A stretch of 64,000 nucleotides of DNA. Origin: Candidatus Micrarchaeota archaeon. Its GTDB lineage: Archaea > Micrarchaeota > Micrarchaeia > Norongarragalinales > Norongarragalinaceae. A program made the position numbers and the translations under genes. A model generated the notes under the pieces. The model was given only the letters and a program-made list of their open reading frames with translations. It was not told the origin of the DNA and made no database searches. This document shows, piece after piece, positions 2,313 through 39,398 of this stretch (position 1 is its first letter; each line of letters starts with the position of its first letter). The DNA lies in assembly GCA_016207165.1 (NCBI GenBank), contig JACQQD010000005.1, forward strand, positions 98,736-162,735. The letters are read 5' to 3'.

Positions 2313-3137
2313 ATGGCCATTGAAAAGAAATTCATCCAACAAGCGCTGGCCGACCTCCAGATCAAGACCCTGCTGAACAAGGAATTGGACAAGGCGGGCG
2401 TCTCGGAAATTCTCATCCAAAAAACGCCGATTGCCACCCGCATCACCGTACGCGTGCGTCGGCCGGGCCTCGTGGTGGGAAAGAAAGGAAAAGCCATCAA
2501 GGAACTCTGTGAACTGCTGGAGCGCCGCTTTGCCATCGAGAACCCGCAGTTTGAAGTCATTGAAGTGGCGCAACCCAGTTTGGACGCCCGGCTGATGGCC
2601 GAAAAAATCGGCCGCCGCCTGGAAATGCGTCCCAACGCCAAGCCCATCATGCGCATGGCCTTGAGAGAAATCATGGACGCTGGCGCCTTGGGCGCCGAGC
2701 TGCAGGCCGCCGGAAAAATCGTGGGCAAAGGCGGCAAAGCCAAGACGTTGCGCATGCGCGCCGGTTACCTCAAAAAGTCCGGTGAGCCTACCAAATGGGT
2801 GCGCAAAGGCCACTTCGTCGCGTACCTGAAGGCCGGGGCGGTGGGCATCAGCGTCAAAATCGTGCCCCCCGACGCCGTGTTTCCCGACTCCATCAAAATT
2901 CCCGCGACCATCCCCGAAAAAGTGCCGGTTCAACCCGTGGAAGAAACCGTGGCCGCCGAAGCCAACGCGGTTGACGCCCTCGAGGCAAAGCCGGACGCCG
3001 AGGAAAAACCCAAGAAAACCCGCAAGGCGCCCAAACCCAAGAAACAAAAAGCGCTGGAGCCTGCCGAAGCAGCCGTCCCCGTTCCGCCTGCTTCAGATTC
3101 CCAATCGCCTGTCAGCGAAGAAAAAATCGGTGAATGA
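2313..3137 (+). CDS. rps3: 30S ribosomal protein uS3 (S3), KH domain, Pro/Lys-rich C-terminal tail
   Basis: 274 aa; KH motif ...VRRPGLVVGKKGKAIKEL...; tail EEKPKKTRKAPKPKKQK. Confidence 0.93.
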   Translation: MAIEKKFIQQALADLQIKTLLNKELDKAGVSEILIQKTPIATRITVRVRRPGLVVGKKGKAIKELCELLERRFAIENPQFEVIEVAQPSLDARLMAEKIGRRLEMRPNAKPIMRMALREIMDAGALGAELQAAGKIVGKGGKAKTLRMRAGYLKKSGEPTKWVRKGHFVAYLKAGAVGISVKIVPPDAVFPDSIKIPATIPEKVPVQPVEETVAAEANAVDALEAKPDAEEKPKKTRKAPKPKKQKALEPAEAAVPVPPASDSQSPVSEEKIGE

Positions 3138-3391
3138 CCATGGCACTGATTTCCAAGAAGAAGCTCAAGGACATGACGGTGGACGACTTGAAGGCGGAGC
3201 TTTTGAAGGTCCGCTCCGAGTACCGCGTCGAATCCGGGTCGCGCGCGACCACGGGCAAACCCAACAACCCCGGACGCTACAAACAATTGCGGCGCCTCAA
3301 CGCGCGGCTGTTGACCCTGTTGAGGCAAAAAGGCGTAAAAATTGGAACCGAAGGCCGAACGGCGTCGACGGAGCGCTCAGAAGCTATTTAA
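3134..3391 (+). CDS. rpl29: 50S ribosomal protein uL29 (L29)
   Basis: 85 aa, ...MTVDDLKAELLKVRSEYR...; ATGA overlap with S3. Confidence 0.9.
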   Translation: MTMALISKKKLKDMTVDDLKAELLKVRSEYRVESGSRATTGKPNNPGRYKQLRRLNARLLTLLRQKGVKIGTEGRTASTERSEAI

Positions 3392-9885: not shown

Positions 9886-9945
9886 CTTTTTTCCCTTTGC
9901 GCCCCTCCGCCGGTTCCACAACCTTTTTATTAAAACCTTCGCTGA

Positions 9946-15889: not shown

Positions 15890-15912
15890 CCCGATTCCGC
15901 CTCTTTTTGTTC

Positions 15913-18900
15913 ATGCGTGCCGTCTTTTCCCTTTCCATACTCGTCCTGCTTGTTTCGGCTTTCTCTATTTCCGCGGCAGGCAACTTGCTTGTCTTAAACA
16001 AGCAAGCCATTGCTTTTCAGCCTCCCTCGGATTGCTCGGGCAACCTGGCGTTGGAAGCCAGCATGGCCTGCGCCGCCAAAAACTCGGTTTTGGCGTCAGA
16101 CGGCCTGCGCTTGGATGTCCACGTGGGCTCCGATTTCGTCCAAAAATTGTCGGGCGCCAACACGCGTCTGACGTGGTTCACCGGCGAGGGCCCGGTAATC
16201 TCGGATGCCCTCTCGTTTCCTTTGACCGGCGAAGGCTTCAGCGTCATTCATTTCGACGGCCGCCAGCTTCACGTCTACGCGAGTACCTCGGACACGGAAG
16301 CCGCTGCGGCGCTCGGCCAATATCTTTTTGATGAACGGAAGAATTTGGCGTTCAACAAGGATTGCCGCCTCTCCGTTTCCAGTAACGGCGACGCCATTGC
16401 CTTCAAGAAGTGCGTGCCGACCAACCTGCCTACCAAATCCTCTTTTCAAACTCAGTCATTGGGCTCCCAAGCGTACGATGACTTTTTCGTCTACGATGCC
16501 GCGCAAGGCGGCGTTTCAGCGGGAGCTTTGCCGGAGTTGGGTGACTGTAGCAAGGTTGCGTTCTCCAAATGGCCCACGCCTTCCAAGGAAGTCATCGACA
16601 AGTTCAACGTGGCCGGACTTGGAGGTTACGATTCCGGTCATCGCACGCACAAGGGCATCGACATTTCCATTGCGGAGAACGACCCCGTCTACTCCGTTCT
16701 GCCCGGAAAAATCCTCGACATTTACTCGGCGTGTCCGGCTTACTCAACCCCCGCCGACTACGGTTGCGGCGGCGGCTTCGGAAACTTGGTGAAAGTCGTC
16801 CACGGAACGTGTACCTACGACGGACAGAAAAGCTACTTCATGACGCAATACAACCATTTGGCCAAGGCGGCCGACGGCCTCAAGATTGGAGACGGCGTTG
16901 CCGCTGGCCAGAAAATCGCGTTGGGCGGCAGCTCGGGAAGGTCCACAGGCCCCCACTTGCATTTCGGGGCCGCGTTAATCGACTCGCTGAAAACCGGTCA
17001 ATCCACGGATTCGGACTCCAACGTCGTGTTGAACCCATCGCCGGCCTTAACCGTGGCCTCGTTGCCTGCAGGCTCCGTTCCCGGCCCCGTTCAAGCGCGC
17101 CCGCAATCCATTTTGGATTTTGCGGAAGAAGGTAAAATCAAGACTTCAGTCAAAAACGGCGAAACCGGGATCCTAGCCATCACGCCTTCCGTCAACGGCC
17201 AATGCAGTCAACCGCCCCAAACACCCTATCTACTTGGGCAAGCCCAGGAACTTTCGTCCCCCATTTGCGTCTATTACCAGCTTAGCGCGGAGCACGCGGC
17301 GGCCGTGCAAGACATCGCCTTTGCCGGTTATAGCGAACGTTCCGGCAGTTACTTTACCGTCCGATCCGCCATTCCAAAGGACTCCTCCATCCAGTACCCG
17401 GAAGACTATGAATCGCAAGTCAACATCGGGAAACCACTTTCCGCTTCGGGCCAGCCATCCGCCGGTGTCGCCGTCGCCGCACTGCCTGTGCTTAAACCCG
17501 GTGACTCGTATCCGGGAGGCCTGCACTTGAACATGTATTTGCGCACGGAATTAATTTCTCCTTCAACGGAAGTCAGTGCGAATGCCAAGGCCCCGGGAAT
17601 TTCCCGCGTGAAAGTCGGTGAAATCAACGTCGGCCTCCTGAAAAGCAATTACATCAAGAACGTTCCAGGCTCGCTTCAAGGCAAGACCTTCGTCATCGAT
17701 CCCGGCCATGGCGGGCCGGACGGGTTGGGTTCCTACGTGGGCGCCGACGAGAAAACCACGCCCCGCCACGAACGCACCATCACGCTGGCTGTTTCCAAAG
17801 AACTCCGAGAGCTTCTCTCTGGCGCCGGCGCCAAGGTGGTCATGACGCGCGAAACCGACGTGGACGTCGATTTGTCAGACCGGGCGGACCTGGCGGACAG
17901 CCAGAACGCGGATGCGTTCGTCAGCGTCCACGTCAACTGCGACCGGGAAAAAGCGATTCGAGAAACGCAGGGAATCACCCAGTTTGCCGGCATCAAGAAA
18001 ACCGATCCTGAACTTTGCTCTGCGGGCGTGATCTATCCCAAAGTGGGAGGCGCGCAAGAGAAAAACAGCATTGGGTTGGCGCAAGCCATTGCCAAGTCCA
18101 TGTCCCTGGATTCCCTTCCGTCGTTTGGCGTGTACTTTGACGGCCCCGGTTCGACGTTCGTGGGCACGTATTACGCCGGAAAAATCTACAAGCCCACGCC
18201 GTTAGGCGTCCTTCGCGGCACTACCAAGACGGCGGTGCTGGTGGAAATGGGGCCCATCGACGACGATCGGCTGGATGACTCCAATTACCAGCAGCAATTG
18301 GCGCAACAGATTTACGGTGGGATTCTTCAGAAGTTTGGTACAAGTTCCACGCCGACTTCGGGTGCTTTCAATGTCCAATTGCATGCATGCACACAGGGGC
18401 AGGTCAACAACGGGGATTATTCGCTGACTTTTGAAGAACTTGACCCACTGATTACCGAAGCCTCCCAAAAGTATGGCGTTGAAAAGGCGCTCATCAAGGC
18501 CATCATTTCCCAGGAAAGCGGCCGCCGCCCCTGTGTCATTTCCTTTTACAAGGACTGCTGTTTTGGCTTGATGCAATTGAATCGGCTCAACGGCGATGAA
18601 ACCGGCTATAGTTTGGCGACCAGCACCGCCGGCGTCTTGCAACAGCAAACCGGGTTTGCTTGTTTTGATAAGCCCCTGGATCCCCGCAACAACATCATGT
18701 GTGGCGCCAAGCACTTGGCGGATTTGGTGCGTTTTTATGGCAACAAGTATCCTGGTCAGGACTCCATTAAAATCGTGGCCGCGGCCTACAACGCCGGCGG
18801 CGGAAACGTGGAAAAGTACGGCGGCGTGCCCCCGTTTGGCGAAACGCAAAACTACGTCGTTGAAGTCCGCAAGTTTTACGACCAGTACCGCACGGCGTAA
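15913..18900 (+). CDS. secreted multidomain peptidoglycan hydrolase: signal peptide + M23/LytM endopeptidase + Amidase_3 (MurNAc-L-Ala amidase) + C-terminal SLT lytic transglycosylase
   Basis: signal MRAVFSLSILVLLVSAFS; M23 motifs HKGIDIS...D...YNHL...GSSGRSTGPHLHFG; Amidase_3 KTFVIDPGHGGPDG...ADAFVSVHVNC; SLT ...LIKAIISQESGRRP...FGLMQLN...AAAYNAGGGNV; track ORF starts at TTG 15907, ATG 15913 preferred. Confidence 0.8.
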   Translation: MRAVFSLSILVLLVSAFSISAAGNLLVLNKQAIAFQPPSDCSGNLALEASMACAAKNSVLASDGLRLDVHVGSDFVQKLSGANTRLTWFTGEGPVISDALSFPLTGEGFSVIHFDGRQLHVYASTSDTEAAAALGQYLFDERKNLAFNKDCRLSVSSNGDAIAFKKCVPTNLPTKSSFQTQSLGSQAYDDFFVYDAAQGGVSAGALPELGDCSKVAFSKWPTPSKEVIDKFNVAGLGGYDSGHRTHKGIDISIAENDPVYSVLPGKILDIYSACPAYSTPADYGCGGGFGNLVKVVHGTCTYDGQKSYFMTQYNHLAKAADGLKIGDGVAAGQKIALGGSSGRSTGPHLHFGAALIDSLKTGQSTDSDSNVVLNPSPALTVASLPAGSVPGPVQARPQSILDFAEEGKIKTSVKNGETGILAITPSVNGQCSQPPQTPYLLGQAQELSSPICVYYQLSAEHAAAVQDIAFAGYSERSGSYFTVRSAIPKDSSIQYPEDYESQVNIGKPLSASGQPSAGVAVAALPVLKPGDSYPGGLHLNMYLRTELISPSTEVSANAKAPGISRVKVGEINVGLLKSNYIKNVPGSLQGKTFVIDPGHGGPDGLGSYVGADEKTTPRHERTITLAVSKELRELLSGAGAKVVMTRETDVDVDLSDRADLADSQNADAFVSVHVNCDREKAIRETQGITQFAGIKKTDPELCSAGVIYPKVGGAQEKNSIGLAQAIAKSMSLDSLPSFGVYFDGPGSTFVGTYYAGKIYKPTPLGVLRGTTKTAVLVEMGPIDDDRLDDSNYQQQLAQQIYGGILQKFGTSSTPTSGAFNVQLHACTQGQVNNGDYSLTFEELDPLITEASQKYGVEKALIKAIISQESGRRPCVISFYKDCCFGLMQLNRLNGDETGYSLATSTAGVLQQQTGFACFDKPLDPRNNIMCGAKHLADLVRFYGNKYPGQDSIKIVAAAYNAGGGNVEKYGGVPPFGETQNYVVEVRKFYDQYRTA

Positions 18901-18982: not shown

Positions 18983-18990
18983 TTTAAATA
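18983..18990 (+). promoter_or_regulatory. TATA box (tttaaata) 30 nt upstream of the tRNA-Ser 5' end
   Basis: consensus archaeal TATA at canonical distance from the mature tRNA 5' end. Confidence 0.45.
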
Positions 18991-19020
18991 CGATCGATTC
19001 AAAGAATTTGTTCTTTGAAT

Positions 19021-19249
19021 GCCGGGATGGCAGAACGGTAATGCGCAACCCTGGAAACCCGATTCCTGTCAAGGAGGGACCTCAGGAGCATGCGATGGTT
19101 GGAAGGCAACCATCGCTTCGCTGAATAGGTCGTCATCGGGCCGTTAAGGTTGTGGGCGCAAGCCCTTCTGAGTTCGAAACGAAGAAACGCCTCGAAAGGG
19201 GTTGCGATTGACGGAGTCAATTGCTTCGCTGAAAATCTCAGTCCCGGCG
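19021..19249 (+). tRNA. tRNA-Ser(GGA) precursor with two introns: canonical 37/38 intron (19057-19146, 90 nt, contains a 10-bp hairpin) and a T-loop 59/60 intron (19179-19235, 57 nt)
   Basis: hand-folded: acceptor GCCGGGA/TCCCGGC + G73; D-arm GCA-GAACGGTAA-TGC; anticodon stem CAACC/GGTTG with loop CUGGAA|intron|A; variable arm GGGC-GCAA-GCCC (class II); T-arm CTGAG-TTCGAA|intron|T-CTCAG; followed by TTTTTGTTTT. Confidence 0.6.
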
Positions 19250-19273
19250 TTTTTGTTTTAAAAAGTTGATTCA

Positions 19274-19921
19274 ATGGCTGCCCGAGAAGAAGAACAGGAA
19301 GAAAAAAAGGAGAAGGCCAAGTTCGGCCGCGCGCAGGCAGGCAAAACCGAGGCCAAGGAAAAGCCGAAGGCAAGGCTCCAGCAAAAAATCGACGTCAAGA
19401 AGACGGGCAAAGAAAAAGAGCATTTCCGGGGCATCGTGCGCATCGTCGGCAAAGACCTCAAAGGCCATGTCACCGTGAAAAACGCGTTGCGCCAAGTGCC
19501 GGGCATCGGCCACAACCTGGCGGCTTCCTTGATTCGGGGCGTCATGAAGAACGCGGATTTTGCTTCCGACGAGTTGGTCGGCAACTTGTCGGATGAACAA
19601 CTCTCCCAATTCGAGGTCGTCATCAAGGACCCCCAGAAATTCGGGGTTCCCGCATACCTTTTGAATCGACCGTTGGACCCGGAGACCGGAAAACCGGTGC
19701 ACCGCGTCATGGCGGAACTGACTTTTTCGGTGCGCCAGGACATCAACAAGGAAAAAGACTTGCGTTCGTATCGTGGCTGGCGCCACCAAATGGGCCAGAA
19801 AGTCCGCGGCCAGCGCACCCGCTCGACTGGAAGAACCGGCATGAGCGTGGGCGTGTTGAAGAAGGCGGCGGCCAAGAAGGGCGCCGTACCGGCGGAAGGC
19901 GCCAAGGAAGAAAAGAAGTGA
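19274..19921 (+). CDS. rps13: 30S ribosomal protein uS13 (S13) with Lys/Glu-rich N-terminal extension
   Basis: 215 aa; core ...[33 protein letters not shown]...; N-terminal 45 aa [11 protein letters not shown]... Confidence 0.9.
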
Positions 19922-21034: not shown

Positions 21035-21693
21035 ACATTCAACTCTTGGATGAAAAGGAGCGGAAAGCCTGGTTTTTGGTCTCCGGCGCCTCCACGTCCT
21101 TGCTTAACGCACTGCGGCGCGCGGTTATCTCCGAGTTGCCGGCGTTCGCCATCGAGGAAGTCCAGTTCTACGAAAACACGTCGCCCATGTTCAACGAGTA
21201 CGTGGCCGCCCGCCTGGGCTTGGTGCCGTTGACGTTTGAAGAGTCTTCGTCGACGTCGCAGGTGTCCTTGTCGTTGGACGCCGAGGCCGTCGAGGAACCC
21301 AAGACCGTGTACAGCGGTGACTTGATTTCCCAGGACGAGGCCATCAAGCCCTCGTTTCTGCACGTTCCCATCATGAAACTGGGCAAGGGCCAGCGTCTCC
21401 GATTTGAAGCCATTGCCGTGGTGGGCACCGGAAAAAAGCACGCCAAGTTCCAGTCGGCGTTGGCGAGCTTTTCATCCGTCCAGGAGTACTTGGATGAGGA
21501 AAAAGAGCGCAAGGCCGGTGAAGTCGGTGCTTCCCGGCACGCCTTTGCCGGTAAATTGCCTGGGGACGTCAAGAAAAACGAGTCCGTTTTTTATGTGGAG
21601 ACCTTCAACAACGTGGCCGCCCGGGAACAATTGTACCGGGCCGTGCGGGTGGTGGAGGCCCAATTGGATCGCGTCGTGGAGCTAGTCAAATGA
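21031..21693 (+). CDS. rpoD: DNA-directed RNA polymerase subunit D (Rpo3)
   Basis: 220 aa, ...[43 protein letters not shown]...; canonical S13-S4-S11-rpoD order. Confidence 0.85.
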
Positions 21694-21977
21694 GGGTGCG
21701 CGTGATTCCCAACGCCAAAACGCCCGCGCTTTTGTGGCGCGAAAGCGGATGGGTGTTGCGGGTGCGCGCCAAGCCCATGGACGGGAAAGCCAACGCGGAA
21801 GCGGAAAAACTGCTTTCGACGCTGGCGAAATGCCGCGTGCGCGTGGTCTCCGGCCAAAAAAGCCGGGTCAAAGTCGTTGCCGCGGAAGGAATTACGGAAA
21901 AGAATTTACATGAACGCGTGTGTGCAGGGGTGGCGGAGCTTGGTCAAACGTGCAGGATTGAGGTTCCTGTTCCCTAG
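21690..21977 (+). CDS. DUF167 (YggU/UPF0235) family protein; 3' end overlaps the tRNA-Leu 5' exon by 54 nt
   Basis: 95 aa, ...LRVRAKPMDGKANAEAEKLLSTLAKCRVRVVSGQKSRVKVV... matches DUF167 pattern (P.dGkAN..l...la......v.i..G..sr.K.v.i). Confidence 0.7.
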   Translation: MRVRVIPNAKTPALLWRESGWVLRVRAKPMDGKANAEAEKLLSTLAKCRVRVVSGQKSRVKVVAAEGITEKNLHERVCAGVAELGQTCRIEVPVP

Positions 21978-22059
21978 TGGATGCCTGGGTTCGAATCTCG
22001 AGCGAAGCGGTTGCTGTTTGTCAACGATCGCCGCCTCCGCGAAAATCCCAGCCCCTGCA
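21924..22059 (+). tRNA. tRNA-Leu(GAG) precursor with a ~50-nt non-canonical intron in the T-loop (59/60; 21997-22046)
   Basis: hand-folded: acceptor GCAGGGG/CCCCTGC + A73; D-arm GCG-GAGCTTGGTCAAA-CGT; anticodon arm CAGGA-UUGAGGU-TCCTG (GAG); variable arm; T-arm CTGGG-TTCGAAT|intron|CCCAG. Confidence 0.7.
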
Positions 22060-23599: not shown

Positions 23600-23725
23600 T
23601 GGGGGATCTGCGATTCGAACGCAGGACACCAGCTCTTCTGCCTTAGCCCATGGGTTGACGTCAAACGACAACCACTTCGCTTAAGGTCCCAAAGCTGGTA
23701 GGATGCCAGGCTACCCCAATCCCCC
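23600..23725 (-). tRNA. intron-containing tRNA, anticodon UGG (Pro) preferred, UUG (Gln) possible; ~53-nt intron at 37/38
   Basis: minus strand GGGGGAU...acceptor 7 bp + A73; D-arm GGGU-AGCCUGGC-AUCC; anticodon stem with loop containing UUUGGG; T-arm CUGCG-UUCGAAU-CGCAG. Confidence 0.6.
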
Positions 23726-25348: not shown

Positions 25349-25497
25349 CCCGCTGTAGCTCAACCTGGCAGAGCACCTGACTGTAGGACTGCGGACCGTT
25401 TTTGTAGGTACGTTTTCCGGTTACAGCCTGCTCTGTCTTTAGAGACAGATTCCTGAAAGAAATCAGGGTGTTGCCAGTTCAAATCTGGCCAGCGGGA
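25349..25497 (+). tRNA. tRNA-Tyr(GUA) precursor with ~75-nt canonical 37/38 intron (25387-25461)
   Basis: acceptor CCCGCTG/CAGCGGG + A73; D-arm GCTC-AACCTGGCA-GAGC; anticodon stem CCTGA/TCAGG with loop CUGUAG|intron; variable GTGTT; T-arm GCCAG-TTCAAAT-CTGGC. Confidence 0.75.
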
Positions 25498-27189: not shown

Positions 27190-27331
27190 GGCAGCGGAAA
27201 ACCGCCGTCAAAACAAGATTCCGTATTTTTCCGTTAGGATACTCCTCTTTTTAAGCGCATTTGGTGGACTGGTTTTCTGCGGGCCCACCCAAATCCATTA
27301 AAAACGGTTGCCCCACAAGCATTTCTCTTGC

Positions 27332-27403
27332 GCCTTGATGGTGTAGCGGTTAGCATTCGGGCTTGTCGAGCCCGCGACCCGGGTTCGATTCCCGGTCAAG
27401 GCG
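27332..27403 (+). tRNA. tRNA-Asp(GUC), no intron
   Basis: GCCTTGA...acceptor; anticodon arm CGGGC-UUGUCGA-GCCCG; T-arm CCGGG-TTCGATT-CCCGG; G73. Confidence 0.85.
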
Positions 27404-27683
27404 TATCGCATTTTTCTGGATGGGGTTGGCGTTTTTGCTCCCGCTGTCGCTGGCCATGTCGCCGCTGCCCTTGTAAGCGCAATTCTTTTTAACGCGCGCC
27501 GCTCCAAGGGGGTTCATCCGTTTCAGTCACAAGAGGCTGAAGAGTCAAACCTATGAATGAAGGCATGCTGACCGCCGTTTTGGCGGGTCTGGTCCTCGTC
27601 GTCGCCCTTGGGGGCGCTGGCTTGGAGTGGCTGGGCCTGGGCGCCGCCGGGTTGTTCTTTTTGGGCAACCAGGGTGGCGGCCA

Positions 27684-36976: not shown

Positions 36977-38179
36977 ATGGCTGAAAAAATAACGGTGAAC
37001 AACGGCATTCTGAACGTTCCGGACCACCCCATCATTCCCCTCATTGAGGGCGACGGCGTGGGCGTGGACATTACGCCGGTCATGACGACCGTCGTTGACG
37101 CGGCCGTGGCCAAGGCTTCCGGCGGCAAGAAGAAAATTGAATGGAAGCCGATTCTGGCCGGCGAGAAAGCCATTGCCAAGACCAATGAACTGTTGCCCCA
37201 GGAAAGCATTGACGCCATCCAGGAGTACGTCGTCTCCATCAAGGGTCCCCTGACCACGCCGGTTGGCGGCGGGTTCCGGAGCCTGAACGTAACGCTTCGC
37301 CAGGTGCTGGACTTGTACGCGTGCGTGCGGCCCGTCAAGTGGTATCCCGGCATTCCCAACCCCATGAAGCAACCGGAGAAGTTGAACGTCAAAATCTTCC
37401 GCGAGAACACGGAAGACGTGTACGCTGGCATCGAGTGGGATGCCGGCAGTGCCGAAGCCAACAAGCTCATTGAATTTGTCGCCTCCATGGGAAAGAAAAT
37501 CCGGCCCAACTCGGCGGTGGGCATCAAACCCATCTCGGAATTCGGCTCCAAGCGCATCGTTCGCGCGGCCATTCACAACGCCATGAAGTACGGCTTGAGC
37601 AAGGTCACTTTGGTGCACAAGGGCAACATCATGAAGTTCACCGAAGGCGGATTCCGGAAGTGGGGCTACGAGGCCGCCAAGGAGTTTTCCAACACGGTTA
37701 CGGAAGAGGAAGTCGCCAAAGGCGCGTCCGCGGAAGGAAAAATCATCGTCAACGACCGCATTGCTGACTCCATGTTCCAACAACTTTTGCTCCGCCCCGA
37801 TGAATACCAGGTGTTGGCGACCATGAACCTCAACGGCGACTACTTGTCGGACGCCGCCGCGGCGCAAACCGGGGGCCTGGGCATCGCGCCGGGCGCCAAC
37901 ATCAACTACCAGACCGGCGTCGCGTTGTTTGAAGCCACGCACGGAACCGCTCCGAAGTACGCGGGCCAGGACAAAGTCAACCCCGGTTCGCTGTTGTTGT
38001 CCGCCGTCATGATGCTGCGCTACATGGACTGGAAAACAGCCGCCGACTTGGTGGAAAACGCGTTCCAGAAAACCATCGACCAGAAAATCGTTACCTACGA
38101 TCTTTCCCGGCAGATGGAAGGCGCCCAAGAAGTTCGGTGCTCGGAATTCGGGGACGCCATCATCCGGAACATGGATTGA
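36977..38179 (+). CDS. icd: NADP-dependent isocitrate dehydrogenase (prokaryotic homodimeric type)
   Basis: 400 aa; ...[15 protein letters not shown]...[18 protein letters not shown]... Confidence 0.85.
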
Positions 38180-38183
38180 TCGT

Positions 38184-39398
38184 ATGGCTCAACGCGCAAT
38201 CCGTGAAATCGACGCCAAAAACATTTTGGTCCACGCCGGCGTGGCGAAATGGCACGGCGTCTTGGTGGACGGGCAAACGGACTGGAAGACGCTTTCCAAA
38301 GACCACCCGTGGCTGTTGAAGGAAAAGCTGGTGGTCAAGCCCGACCAATGCTTTGGCCAACGAGGCAAGCACGGCTTGGTTTTGTTGAACGCCGATTTGA
38401 AGGGCGTCGAGCAATTCGTGCGGAAAAACATGAACCGGGTCGTTGAATTAAACGGCGTGAAAGGCCCCTTGACGCACTTCTTGATCGAGCCGTTTGTCCC
38501 GCATCAAGCCGAGTACTACGCCGCCATCCAGACCGAGAAAGACCACGACGTGGTTTTTTTCTCCTTGAAAGGCGGCGTGGACGTGGAGGAAAACTGGGAC
38601 CGCATCCAACCATTCAAAGTCGGAGTCCTTGACGACTTGGATTCGGTGTCCTTTGGCTTGCCCAAGATGCCGGAGCGCGACGCGGTCCACGCGTTTCTCA
38701 AGAAACTCTACCGCGTCTTTGCCGAGAACGACTTTTCGTTTTTGGAGTTGAACCCTTTTTGCATGGTGGACGGAAAGCCGGTGCTGCTGGATGCCGTGGC
38801 GCGGCTGGACGACACGGCGGCCTTCAAAGGCAAGTGGAACGTCGAGTTCCCGGCGCCTTTTGGCCGGACGTTGTCCAAGGAGGAAGCCTACATCAAGTCG
38901 TTGGACGAGAAAACCGGTGCGTCATTGAAGCTGACCGTCTTGAACCCGAAGGGAAAAATCTGGACGCTGGTCGCCGGCGGCGGAGCGTCCGTGGTGTACG
39001 CCGACACCATCGTCGACTTGGGCTTCCAAAAAGAGCTGGCCAACTACGGAGAGTATTCCGGCAATCCCAACGACGAAGAAACCTACCTTTACACCAAAAC
39101 CGTGCTGGAATTGTTGGTCAAAGGAAACGGGCAGATTCTTTTGATTGGCGGCGGCATCGCCAACTTCACCGACGTGGCCAAGACCTTCAAAGGCATCATC
39201 CAGGCGCTGAGCGAATTTGCGCCGGCGCTCAAGAAAAAAGGCGTGAAAATATACGTTCGCCGCGGGGGTCCCAACTACCAGCAAGGCTTGGAACACATGC
39301 GGCAACTGGGCGAGAAAACGGGTTTGTCCATCCAAGTCTTTGGCCCGGAAACGCATATGACGAAGATCGTTCCCATGGCGCTTGAGGAGCTGAAATGA
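38184..39398 (+). CDS. aclB: ATP-citrate lyase small subunit AclB-like (ATP-grasp, succinyl-CoA synthetase beta-like)
   Basis: 404 aa; ...EIDAKNIL...VVKPDQCFGQRGKHGLV...; CoA-ligase fold; immediately upstream of aclA-like gene. Confidence 0.75.
   Translation: MAQRAIREIDAKNILVHAGVAKWHGVLVDGQTDWKTLSKDHPWLLKEKLVVKPDQCFGQRGKHGLVLLNADLKGVEQFVRKNMNRVVELNGVKGPLTHFLIEPFVPHQAEYYAAIQTEKDHDVVFFSLKGGVDVEENWDRIQPFKVGVLDDLDSVSFGLPKMPERDAVHAFLKKLYRVFAENDFSFLELNPFCMVDGKPVLLDAVARLDDTAAFKGKWNVEFPAPFGRTLSKEEAYIKSLDEKTGASLKLTVLNPKGKIWTLVAGGGASVVYADTIVDLGFQKELANYGEYSGNPNDEETYLYTKTVLELLVKGNGQILLIGGGIANFTDVAKTFKGIIQALSEFAPALKKKGVKIYVRRGGPNYQQGLEHMRQLGEKTGLSIQVFGPETHMTKIVPMALEELK

Follow-up and report, generated by a model that had tools for sequence, protein, structure and literature searches.

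A Micrarchaeota tRNA-Ser(GGA) gene interrupted at positions 37/38 and 59/60 by two predicted bulge-helix-bulge introns

INTRODUCTION

Positions 19021-19249 (+) of a 64,000-nt stretch of DNA (hereafter the window; contig JACQQD010000005.1 of assembly GCA_016207165.1, from a Candidatus Micrarchaeota archaeon) hold the parts of a tRNA-Ser(GGA) separated by two inserted segments, and neither default ARAGORN nor the Rfam tRNA model, the latter also at a permissive threshold, sees the unspliced gene. Is this a working gene whose inserts are removed from the transcript, or the remains of a broken one? We read it as a functional tRNA-Ser(GGA) gene that is transcribed as one precursor and interrupted by two protein-spliced introns, and put the probability of this reading at about 0.93. 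The reading is carried by the anatomy of the gene, by the bulge-helix-bulge (BHB) geometry of its junctions, and by conservation and covariation over 32 distinct orthologs.

GENE ANATOMY AND SPLICED PRODUCT

All parts of the gene lie on the + strand. Exon 1 (19021-19056) carries the 5′ strand of the acceptor stem, the D-arm with its 3-bp stem, the 5′ strand of the anticodon stem and the anticodon loop through A37, with the anticodon GGA at 19053-19055. Intron 1 (19057-19146) follows, 90 nt long at the canonical 37/38 position, with a near-strict hBHBh′ motif (h, H and h′ being outer, central and inner helix). Exon 2 (19147-19178) runs from A38 through the 3′ strand of the anticodon stem, the variable arm GGGC-GCAA-GCCC and the 5′ strand of the T-stem into the T-loop, TTCGAA, as far as position 59. 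Intron 2 (19179-19235), 57 nt long at T-loop position 59/60, has a relaxed BHB of the hBH type. Exon 3 (19236-19249) supplies T60, the 3′ strands of the T-stem and acceptor stem, and the discriminator G73; CCA is not encoded.

The original prediction, made by a model from the letters of the window, had proposed these same two introns and had held that a cloverleaf can be assembled only if both segments are taken out. Both statements are borne out. With 19057-19146 and 19179-19235 removed, the remaining 82 nt fold as a class II cloverleaf, which ARAGORN identifies as tRNA-Ser(gga), and the junctions of orthologs agree with this placement. The ARAGORN drawing has an acceptor stem of 7 bp, a D-stem of 3 bp (GCA/TGC), an anticodon stem of 5 bp plus a G.U at 26:44, a variable arm of 4 bp, a T-stem of 5 bp, the T-loop TTCGAAT and a discriminator G. 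The long variable arm, 3-bp D-stem, G73 and serine anticodon are those of a class II tRNA-Ser. When the T-loop segment alone was retained, ARAGORN reported no tRNA; when the anticodon-loop segment alone was retained, it reported nothing by default and a mis-spliced tRNA-Asn(gtt) in intron mode.

Upstream stands the TATA-like box that had been foreseen, TTTAAATA at 18983-18990 (+), a probable promoter element whose 3′ end lies 31 nt before the tRNA 5′ end. A T-rich tract, TTTTTGTTTT at 19250-19259 (+), comes directly after G73 and is likely an archaeal terminator.

Self-splicing introns were considered and rejected. Group I and group II introns have a ribozyme core structure and a size of at least ~200 nt; the inserts here measure just 57 and 90 nt, and no Rfam intron family was found in them at gathering or permissive thresholds.

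SPLICE JUNCTIONS

All cleavage-site pairs in 18990-19280 (290 nt) were scored for strict BHB geometry, that is, a 4-bp central helix H and two 3-nt bulges cut after base 2, with an outer helix h and an inner helix h′. The single best strict BHB among them is 19056|19146, the proposed boundaries of intron 1. Its central helix pairs 19052-19054 with 19141-19143, its bulges are 19055-19057 and 19145-19147, its inner helix is the 6-bp CCCGAT/ATCGGG (19058-19063 with 19135-19140), and the anticodon stem serves as outer helix (h 6). At 19178|19235 all four central pairs form (H 4/4, TTCG 19173-19176 with TGAA 19230-19233, one G.U included), the bulges are 19177-19179 and 19234-19236, and the T-stem is the outer helix with 5/5 pairs (19168-19172 with 19237-19241). 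Intron 2 also contains internal hairpins at 19189-19193/19198-19202 and 19204-19212/19216-19224.

In RNAfold the exon helices, imposed alone, cost +1.8 kcal/mol above the minimum free energy of -98.9 kcal/mol, and the T-loop BHB then forms unaided; if both BHBs are forced and their bulges kept open, the cost is +3.2 kcal/mol. On predicted structure, the junctions of both introns are of the archaeal BHB type, near-strict at intron 1 and relaxed at intron 2, and the condition under which the original prediction would have failed, that no BHB can form there, does not hold.

ORTHOLOGS, CONSERVATION AND COVARIATION

Relatives were found through homologs of the ribosomal protein S13 and the contigs that encode them, which yielded the DNA 5′ of S13 in eight relatives (88%-53% S13 identity). 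A scan of metagenomes by a conserved exon-1 pattern gave 31 more complete genes, so that the set is one of sharers of the 5′ exon. Together with the window it comprises 40 genes and 32 distinct precursors of 134-428 nt, every one of them split at both 37/38 and 59/60; no uninterrupted Ser(GGA) occurs among these 40 genes from eight relatives, 31 metagenomic contigs and the window. The split gene occupies the syntenic site 5′ of S13 in 8/8 relatives, and such recurrence goes far beyond chance. Removal of the two segments leads to an ARAGORN call of tRNA-Ser(gga) in 31/32 distinct precursors. The exception (L043; L numbers denote loci of relatives) is on the reverse strand of FWPU01012504.1, with the gene at 2984-3294 of the reverse-complemented locus. 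It has a third segment, of 77 nt, in the variable-arm loop; with all three out an 87-nt tRNA-Ser is left, and the adjacent Leu gene is multiply interrupted too (261 nt).

Exons are near-invariant across the set and introns are unalignable, intron 1 ranging over 37-97 nt and intron 2 over 15-298 nt. Exon 3 is identical in 28/32 distinct orthologs; the other four (L038, L043, L045 and L050) have TCTCGG with a compensating T-stem CCGAG. Pairing holds in 99.5% of the cells of the spliced cloverleaf, versus 20-44% when the register is slid. Three cloverleaf pairs have undergone double compensatory changes; of these pairs one is in the variable arm (GC/CG) and two are in the anticodon stem that closes around intron 1, where CAACC/GGTTG, CAGCC/GGCTG, CAGAC/GTCTG and CACGC/GCGTG are found.

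The junctions covary as well. At junction 1, 76.3% of cells are paired across orthologs (31-41% when slid), with double changes at 5/5 inner-helix pairs. Junction 2, examined over 23 distinct ortholog junctions, is 97.6% paired (12-52% when slid); its central helix is 94.6% paired, the intron-side tetramers that pair fully being CGGA, CGAA, TGAA and CGAG, where a random tetramer is expected to pair with TTCG at a rate of 1/32. The T-stem around intron 2 is 100% paired, with one compensatory change from U-A to C-G. Some orthologs have a G as the last base of intron 2 (...GAAAG|T, for example), which fixes the insertion at 59/60 and rules out 57/58 and 58/59. The longest intron 2 in the set by far, 298 nt, belongs to L018 (821-1248; GCA_016214445.1, JACROM010000109.1); by eye it consists of repeated hairpin units, each followed by a purine tract resembling GTCCAAAAGAAAA.

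The flanks are shared in part. (G)TTTAAATA stands 37-39 nt 5′ of the tRNA in L014, L016, L017, L022 and L048, A/T boxes resembling promoter elements are seen in most orthologs at roughly -30 to -39, and nearly every ortholog has a T-tract after the discriminator. In the window, the gap between TATA box and tRNA is occupied by a near-perfect palindrome, TTCAAAGAA-TTTG-TTCTTTGAA at 18998-19019 (+), with z = -4.6 against shuffles. A similar one is found in L014, L019 and L020, and it is not general (median z = -0.6 across the 32 orthologs).

Read together with the gene's anatomy, these features suggest the following pathway. Transcription would start from the TATA box at 18983-18990 and end at the T-tract after G73. 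The precursor would fold so that each exon-intron junction presents a BHB, near-strict at 37/38 and relaxed at 59/60, and the archaeal tRNA-splicing endonuclease would cut within the four 3-nt bulges. An RtcB-type ligase would join the three exons into the 82-nt class II tRNA, and CCA would be added after ligation. For the enzymology we argue, on good grounds, by analogy with ARMAN-2, whose epsilon2 endonuclease cleaves a 59/60 hBH substrate in vitro.

HOST, SYNTENY AND PHYLOGENETIC REACH

The gene adjoins the archaeal S13-S4-S11-RpoD-L18e-L13 cluster, and the S13 protein of the window is 100% identical to one from Candidatus Micrarchaeota archaeon, which places the host in Micrarchaeota (DPANN). 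Neither EndA nor RtcB was matched when 20 open reading frames of the window were compared with Pfam, nor was EndA by tblastn with an EndA probe, a negative result that tells little.

The original prediction had called the two-intron arrangement lineage-diagnostic. The lineage it pointed to stood, the host being DPANN and, within it, Micrarchaeota; the diagnostic value had to be narrowed to a sub-clade. In Candidatus Fermentimicrarchaeum limneticum (L055; CP058998.1, 2381-2480) the syntenic Ser(GGA) has a 13-nt intron at 37/38 only and an intact T-loop, and the 59/60 intron therefore marks a large Micrarchaeota sub-clade, not the whole phylum. ARAGORN with introns enabled mis-calls this Fermentimicrarchaeum gene as tRNA-Ala(ggc).

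OTHER GENES IN THE WINDOW

A crude scan of the 64-kb window for interrupted tRNAs gave five tRNA genes in all, 4/5 of them interrupted and three (Ser, Leu and Pro) unseen by default tools. tRNA-Leu(GAG) (21924-22059, +) has one 50-nt T-loop intron at 59/60 (21996-22045) and is missed by default ARAGORN and by Rfam. Its central helix TTCG/CGAA is 4/4 with the T-stem as outer helix, and splicing in silico yields an 86-nt tRNA-Leu(gag) by ARAGORN; the 5′ part of the gene overlaps the end of an open reading frame at 21690-21977 (PF1765-like in relatives). tRNA-Pro(TGG) (23600-23725, -), with one 53-nt anticodon-loop intron, is seen only via the ARAGORN intron option. tRNA-Tyr(GTA) (25349-25497, +) has one 75-nt intron and is detected by Rfam and not by default ARAGORN, and tRNA-Asp(GTC) (27331-27404, +) has no intron and is detected by default tools.

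In relatives the Leu(GAG) gene, which lies 3′ of RpoD, ranges from intron-less to multiply interrupted. Its T-loop intron is absent from L017, L029, L024 and L033 and present (19-50 nt) in L016, L021/L037, L039, Fermentimicrarchaeum and the window, a presence/absence polymorphism that contrasts with the fixed two-intron state of Ser(GGA).

Two further loci drew our attention. Directly 5′ of the tRNA-Ser gene, 15907-18900 (+) encodes a protein of ~995 aa, whose syntenic homologs have Peptidase_M23, amidase (Amidase_2/3) or YkuD, and SLT lytic transglycosylase domains. It is probably a large multi-domain peptidoglycan hydrolase in an archaeon, which would fit a DPANN lifestyle that targets bacterial cell walls. 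At 36977-39398 (+) an isocitrate/isopropylmalate dehydrogenase lies beside an ATP-citrate lyase-like subunit (Citrate_bind + ATP-grasp), a pair that is a noteworthy central-carbon capacity for a small DPANN genome.

THE HAIRPIN INSERT OF INTRON 1 AND SHARED MODULES

A perfect 10-bp hairpin had been noticed in the first segment, and it is there, GCGATGGTTG at 19092-19101 with CAACCATCGC at 19107-19116 (+). It sits inside a lineage-specific insert of ~41 nt (19086-19126, +) in the apical hairpin loop of intron 1, which reads GGAGCAT-GCGATGGTTG-GAAGG-CAACCATCGC-TTCGCTGAA. In alignment this insert is missing from the ~49-nt orthologous introns of L016, L017, L021 and L029, so intron 1 of the window amounts to the ancestral intron plus the insert. 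The similarity between the insert and the 3′ half of intron 2 was equalled in 0/500 shuffles, and the 3′ end of the insert, ATCGCTTCGCTGAATA, nearly repeats that of intron 2, ATTGCTTCGCTGAAAA. On these comparisons the 10-bp hairpin was no part of the ancestral intron 1; it belongs to the insert, which is akin to intron 2 in its 3′ half. The flanks of the insert are BHB-like. TCAG at 19082-19085 pairs with CTGA at 19121-19124 (H 4/4), the bulges are 19086-19088 and 19125-19127, and the outer helix has 4 bp (19078-19081 with 19128-19131). In RNAfold this nested BHB costs a further +1.8 kcal/mol beyond the two main BHBs.

MAFFT could not structurally align the hairpin arms, and the module was therefore searched for with a descriptor and shuffles. 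Copies of the hairpin followed by TYGCTTYKCT were found in introns 1 and 2 of the window, in intron 2 and the leader (twice) of L015, and in the leaders of L021/L037 and L029/L053. In the ~300 kb searched they are confined to positions in or beside tRNA-Ser genes, and shuffled windows contained zero. Where a leader has the module (hairpin+TTCGCT; L015, L021/L037 and L029/L053), it lies between TATA box and tRNA and lengthens the leader. In relatives, AGCGAA.../...TTCGCT makes up the ancestral inner helix of intron 2, and this accounts for part of the shared string.

Among the introns of the window, the pairs Ser intron 1/Ser intron 2, Ser intron 1/reverse complement of Leu, and Leu/Pro beat 500/500 shuffles, and Ser intron 2/Pro beat 498/500; the Leu and Pro introns share AGCGAAG and GGTTG..CAAC (0/500 shuffles). 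These similarities span just ~20-40 nt and involve the palindromic hairpin and the shared inner-helix motif. Common descent of the similar introns is likely, and mobility of the modules is a possibility.

Some apparent copies were rejected. The tRNA-Tyr intron had seemed by eye to share the module (hairpin + TTCCTGAAAGAA), and pairwise tests find it unrelated. An exact copy of CTTCGCTGAA at 9937 has no hairpin and is a promoter-proximal coincidence 5′ of a likely SecY (by eye). Nor did we accept that the module is truly inverted in the introns of Leu and Pro, the pattern being probably explained by the symmetry of the hairpin and the complementary AGCGAAG/CTTCGCT strands of the inner helix.

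A second module occurs in 13 copies in ~300 kb of relatives (L025, L027, L035, L036, L041, L050 and L052). It consists of a hairpin with polypyrimidine and polypurine arms (CCCTTTTCTT...AAGAAAAGG) and, after it, CCAAAAGAAA. Eight of the copies are placed inside tRNA introns, immediately 3′ of a D-arm or of the 5′ half of a T-loop, and at least two are in tRNA 3′ trailers; some long T-loop introns with this module also hold TATA-like A/T boxes. It was not found in the Ser introns of the window.

ALTERNATIVE READINGS

Several points count against a functional, spliced gene. The case for splicing is one of sequence comparison and predicted folding, and an uninterrupted Ser(GGA) paralog may exist elsewhere in the genome. 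The central helix of intron 1 has only 3/4 pairs, with a C32 x U mismatch (C19051 x T19144). The inner helix of intron 2, CGAAG at 19180-19184 with CTTCG at 19224-19228, is off register by one nt; it is this displacement by one unpaired C (C19229) that puts the intron in the relaxed hBH class. To cut relaxed or non-canonical BHBs the host would need an endonuclease of the epsilon2, (alpha-beta)2 or loop-bearing alpha4 kind, together with an RtcB ligase, and its ability to do so is assumed from relatives (PMC3239211, PMC5829648).

A reading as a decaying pseudogene, in which a tRNA-Ser gene was split by two insertions and is no longer spliced to a working tRNA, would agree with the absence of the locus from the reports of standard tRNA finders. 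We hold this to be very improbable, as lineages down to 53% S13 identity keep near-invariant exons with compensatory stem changes while the inserts diverge past alignment, the splice-junction helices are conserved and covary, promoter and terminator are conserved, and there are zero uninterrupted copies among the 31 metagenomic genes sharing exon 1. A different reading leaves the tRNA intact and gives the introns or hairpin modules a function themselves, as a box C/D-like guide RNA or a protein-binding hairpin, which would explain the retention of both in 32/32 distinct orthologs while the neighbouring Leu(GAG) gains and loses its intron freely. A D-box-like CUGA does follow the hairpin at 19121-19124 and at 19229-19232, and a perfect AUGAUGA is found in one of the leader copies, that of L021. 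In box C/D guides the C (RUGAUGA) and D (CUGA) boxes form a K-turn, usually with a C′/D′ pair and a conserved guide. Here the C-box-like strings, GCGAUGG and GCGAUUG, are degenerate and base-paired in a Watson-Crick hairpin, the C′/D′ pair is absent, and a permissive Rfam scan gave no sRNA family; on these grounds an intron-hosted box C/D guide RNA was rejected. Moreover, the leader copies are without CUGA, the introns are hypervariable in sequence and length (15-298 nt) with conservation limited to the junction helices, and the closest relative, L014 (88% S13 identity), is without the module altogether. A function for the introns in their own right thus seems improbable to us.

The BHB-like arrangement around the insert raises another reading, in which intron 1 is composite and the ~41-nt insert (about 19086-19126) is a nested intron, so that the precursor would have three excisable segments. 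The insert would have been copied from the 3′ half of intron 2 and be bounded by a BHB. With the related elements of the Leu and Pro introns and of leaders in orthologs, it would mark a small family of hairpin modules undergoing active duplication or transposition among introns and leaders in Micrarchaeota. The insert sits exactly in the apical loop of orthologous introns that are without it, its flanking helices and bulges are energetically feasible, its similarity to the 3′ end of intron 2 exceeds 500/500 shuffles, the Leu and Pro introns share their own motif, and the descriptor matches are restricted to places in or beside tRNA-Ser genes. On the other side, comparable BHB-like motifs are not uncommon by chance, several with similar scores occurring in the same 290 nt, and it is for this reason that we rate the nested intron as a tentative and rather unlikely proposal. 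Its inner helix has just 1 bp in register, and its cleavage would leave the mature tRNA unchanged, with no selection to read out. As for the family, the shared motif is partly the ancestral inner helix of intron 2, and a palindromic element inflates apparent similarity. If the proposal were true, the targets of the module would be any removable part of a pre-tRNA, other introns and leaders included. Intron transposition, argued so far only for Thermoproteales, would then extend to DPANN, and an 'intron-in-intron' intermediate would be supplied.

IMPLICATIONS AND COMPARISON WITH KNOWN SYSTEMS

A functional two-intron gene bears on how tRNA genes are counted. Kaneta et al. 2018 (PMC5829648) note that gaps in the tRNA sets of new DPANN genomes point to disrupted tRNA genes that have stayed hidden. 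Default finders miss Ser and 2/4 of the other tRNAs of the window, and tRNA complements and completeness estimates of metagenome-assembled genomes of Micrarchaeota and DPANN are therefore systematically understated, as was suspected there. The locus is also a natural experiment. Two introns are fixed in every sampled relative that shares the 5′ exon (S13 identity to 53%), and their interiors are fully turned over (15-298 nt). It lends itself to work on the origin, persistence and spread of BHB introns, and on the range of substrates that splicing endonucleases of DPANN accept.

The intron of Haloferax volcanii tRNA-Trp, a box C/D guide RNA, resembles intron 1 in being a long (about 100 nt), structured 37/38 intron with BHB removal and CUGA-type elements. 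The window differs in having no convincing C box, C′/D′ pair, conserved guide or interior conservation among orthologs.

In Thermoproteales, introns of different tRNAs and positions in the same genome share sequence, as those of the window do over short spans, and multi-intron tRNA genes escape standard tRNA finders, as here (Sugahara et al. 2007/2008; Fujishima et al. 2010; reviewed in PMC4090602). Those hosts belong to TACK and have an (alpha-beta)2 endonuclease, whereas the host here is of DPANN, and what is shared here is a hairpin module, short and present also in 5′ leaders and inside another intron. To our knowledge, a hairpin module in leaders or within another intron has not been described for Thermoproteales.

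The closest comparison is with ARMAN-2 (Candidatus Micrarchaeum acidiphilum), where disrupted genes make up 56% of the tRNA genes, some of them with 59/60 introns and some with two introns (Fujishima et al. 2011, PMC3239211). Its pre-tRNA-Cys(GCA) has a 59/60 hBH intron, its pre-tRNA-Pro(GGG) has two introns, and its three-unit epsilon2 endonuclease cuts strict 37/38 and relaxed 59/60 substrates in vitro (PMC3239211). The window shares with it the phylum, the 59/60 T-loop site, the relaxed hBH motif in which the T-stem is the outer helix, and multi-intron genes. It differs in the isoacceptor, in the sites of the double intron (53/54 + 59/60 there, 37/38 + 59/60 here) and in intron length, the tested 59/60 intron being of 13 nt there, against 57 and 90 nt here and up to 298 nt in an ortholog. 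Its host is of another Micrarchaeota lineage, with an S13 that is 52% identical to a Micrarchaeaceae sequence. Given that the ARMAN-2 endonuclease cleaves a relaxed 59/60 hBH intron, the gene in the window belongs to an already known kind. It reveals no new mechanism, and a two-intron Ser(GGA) is not surprising for Micrarchaeota, in which interrupted tRNA genes of such a type are already known.

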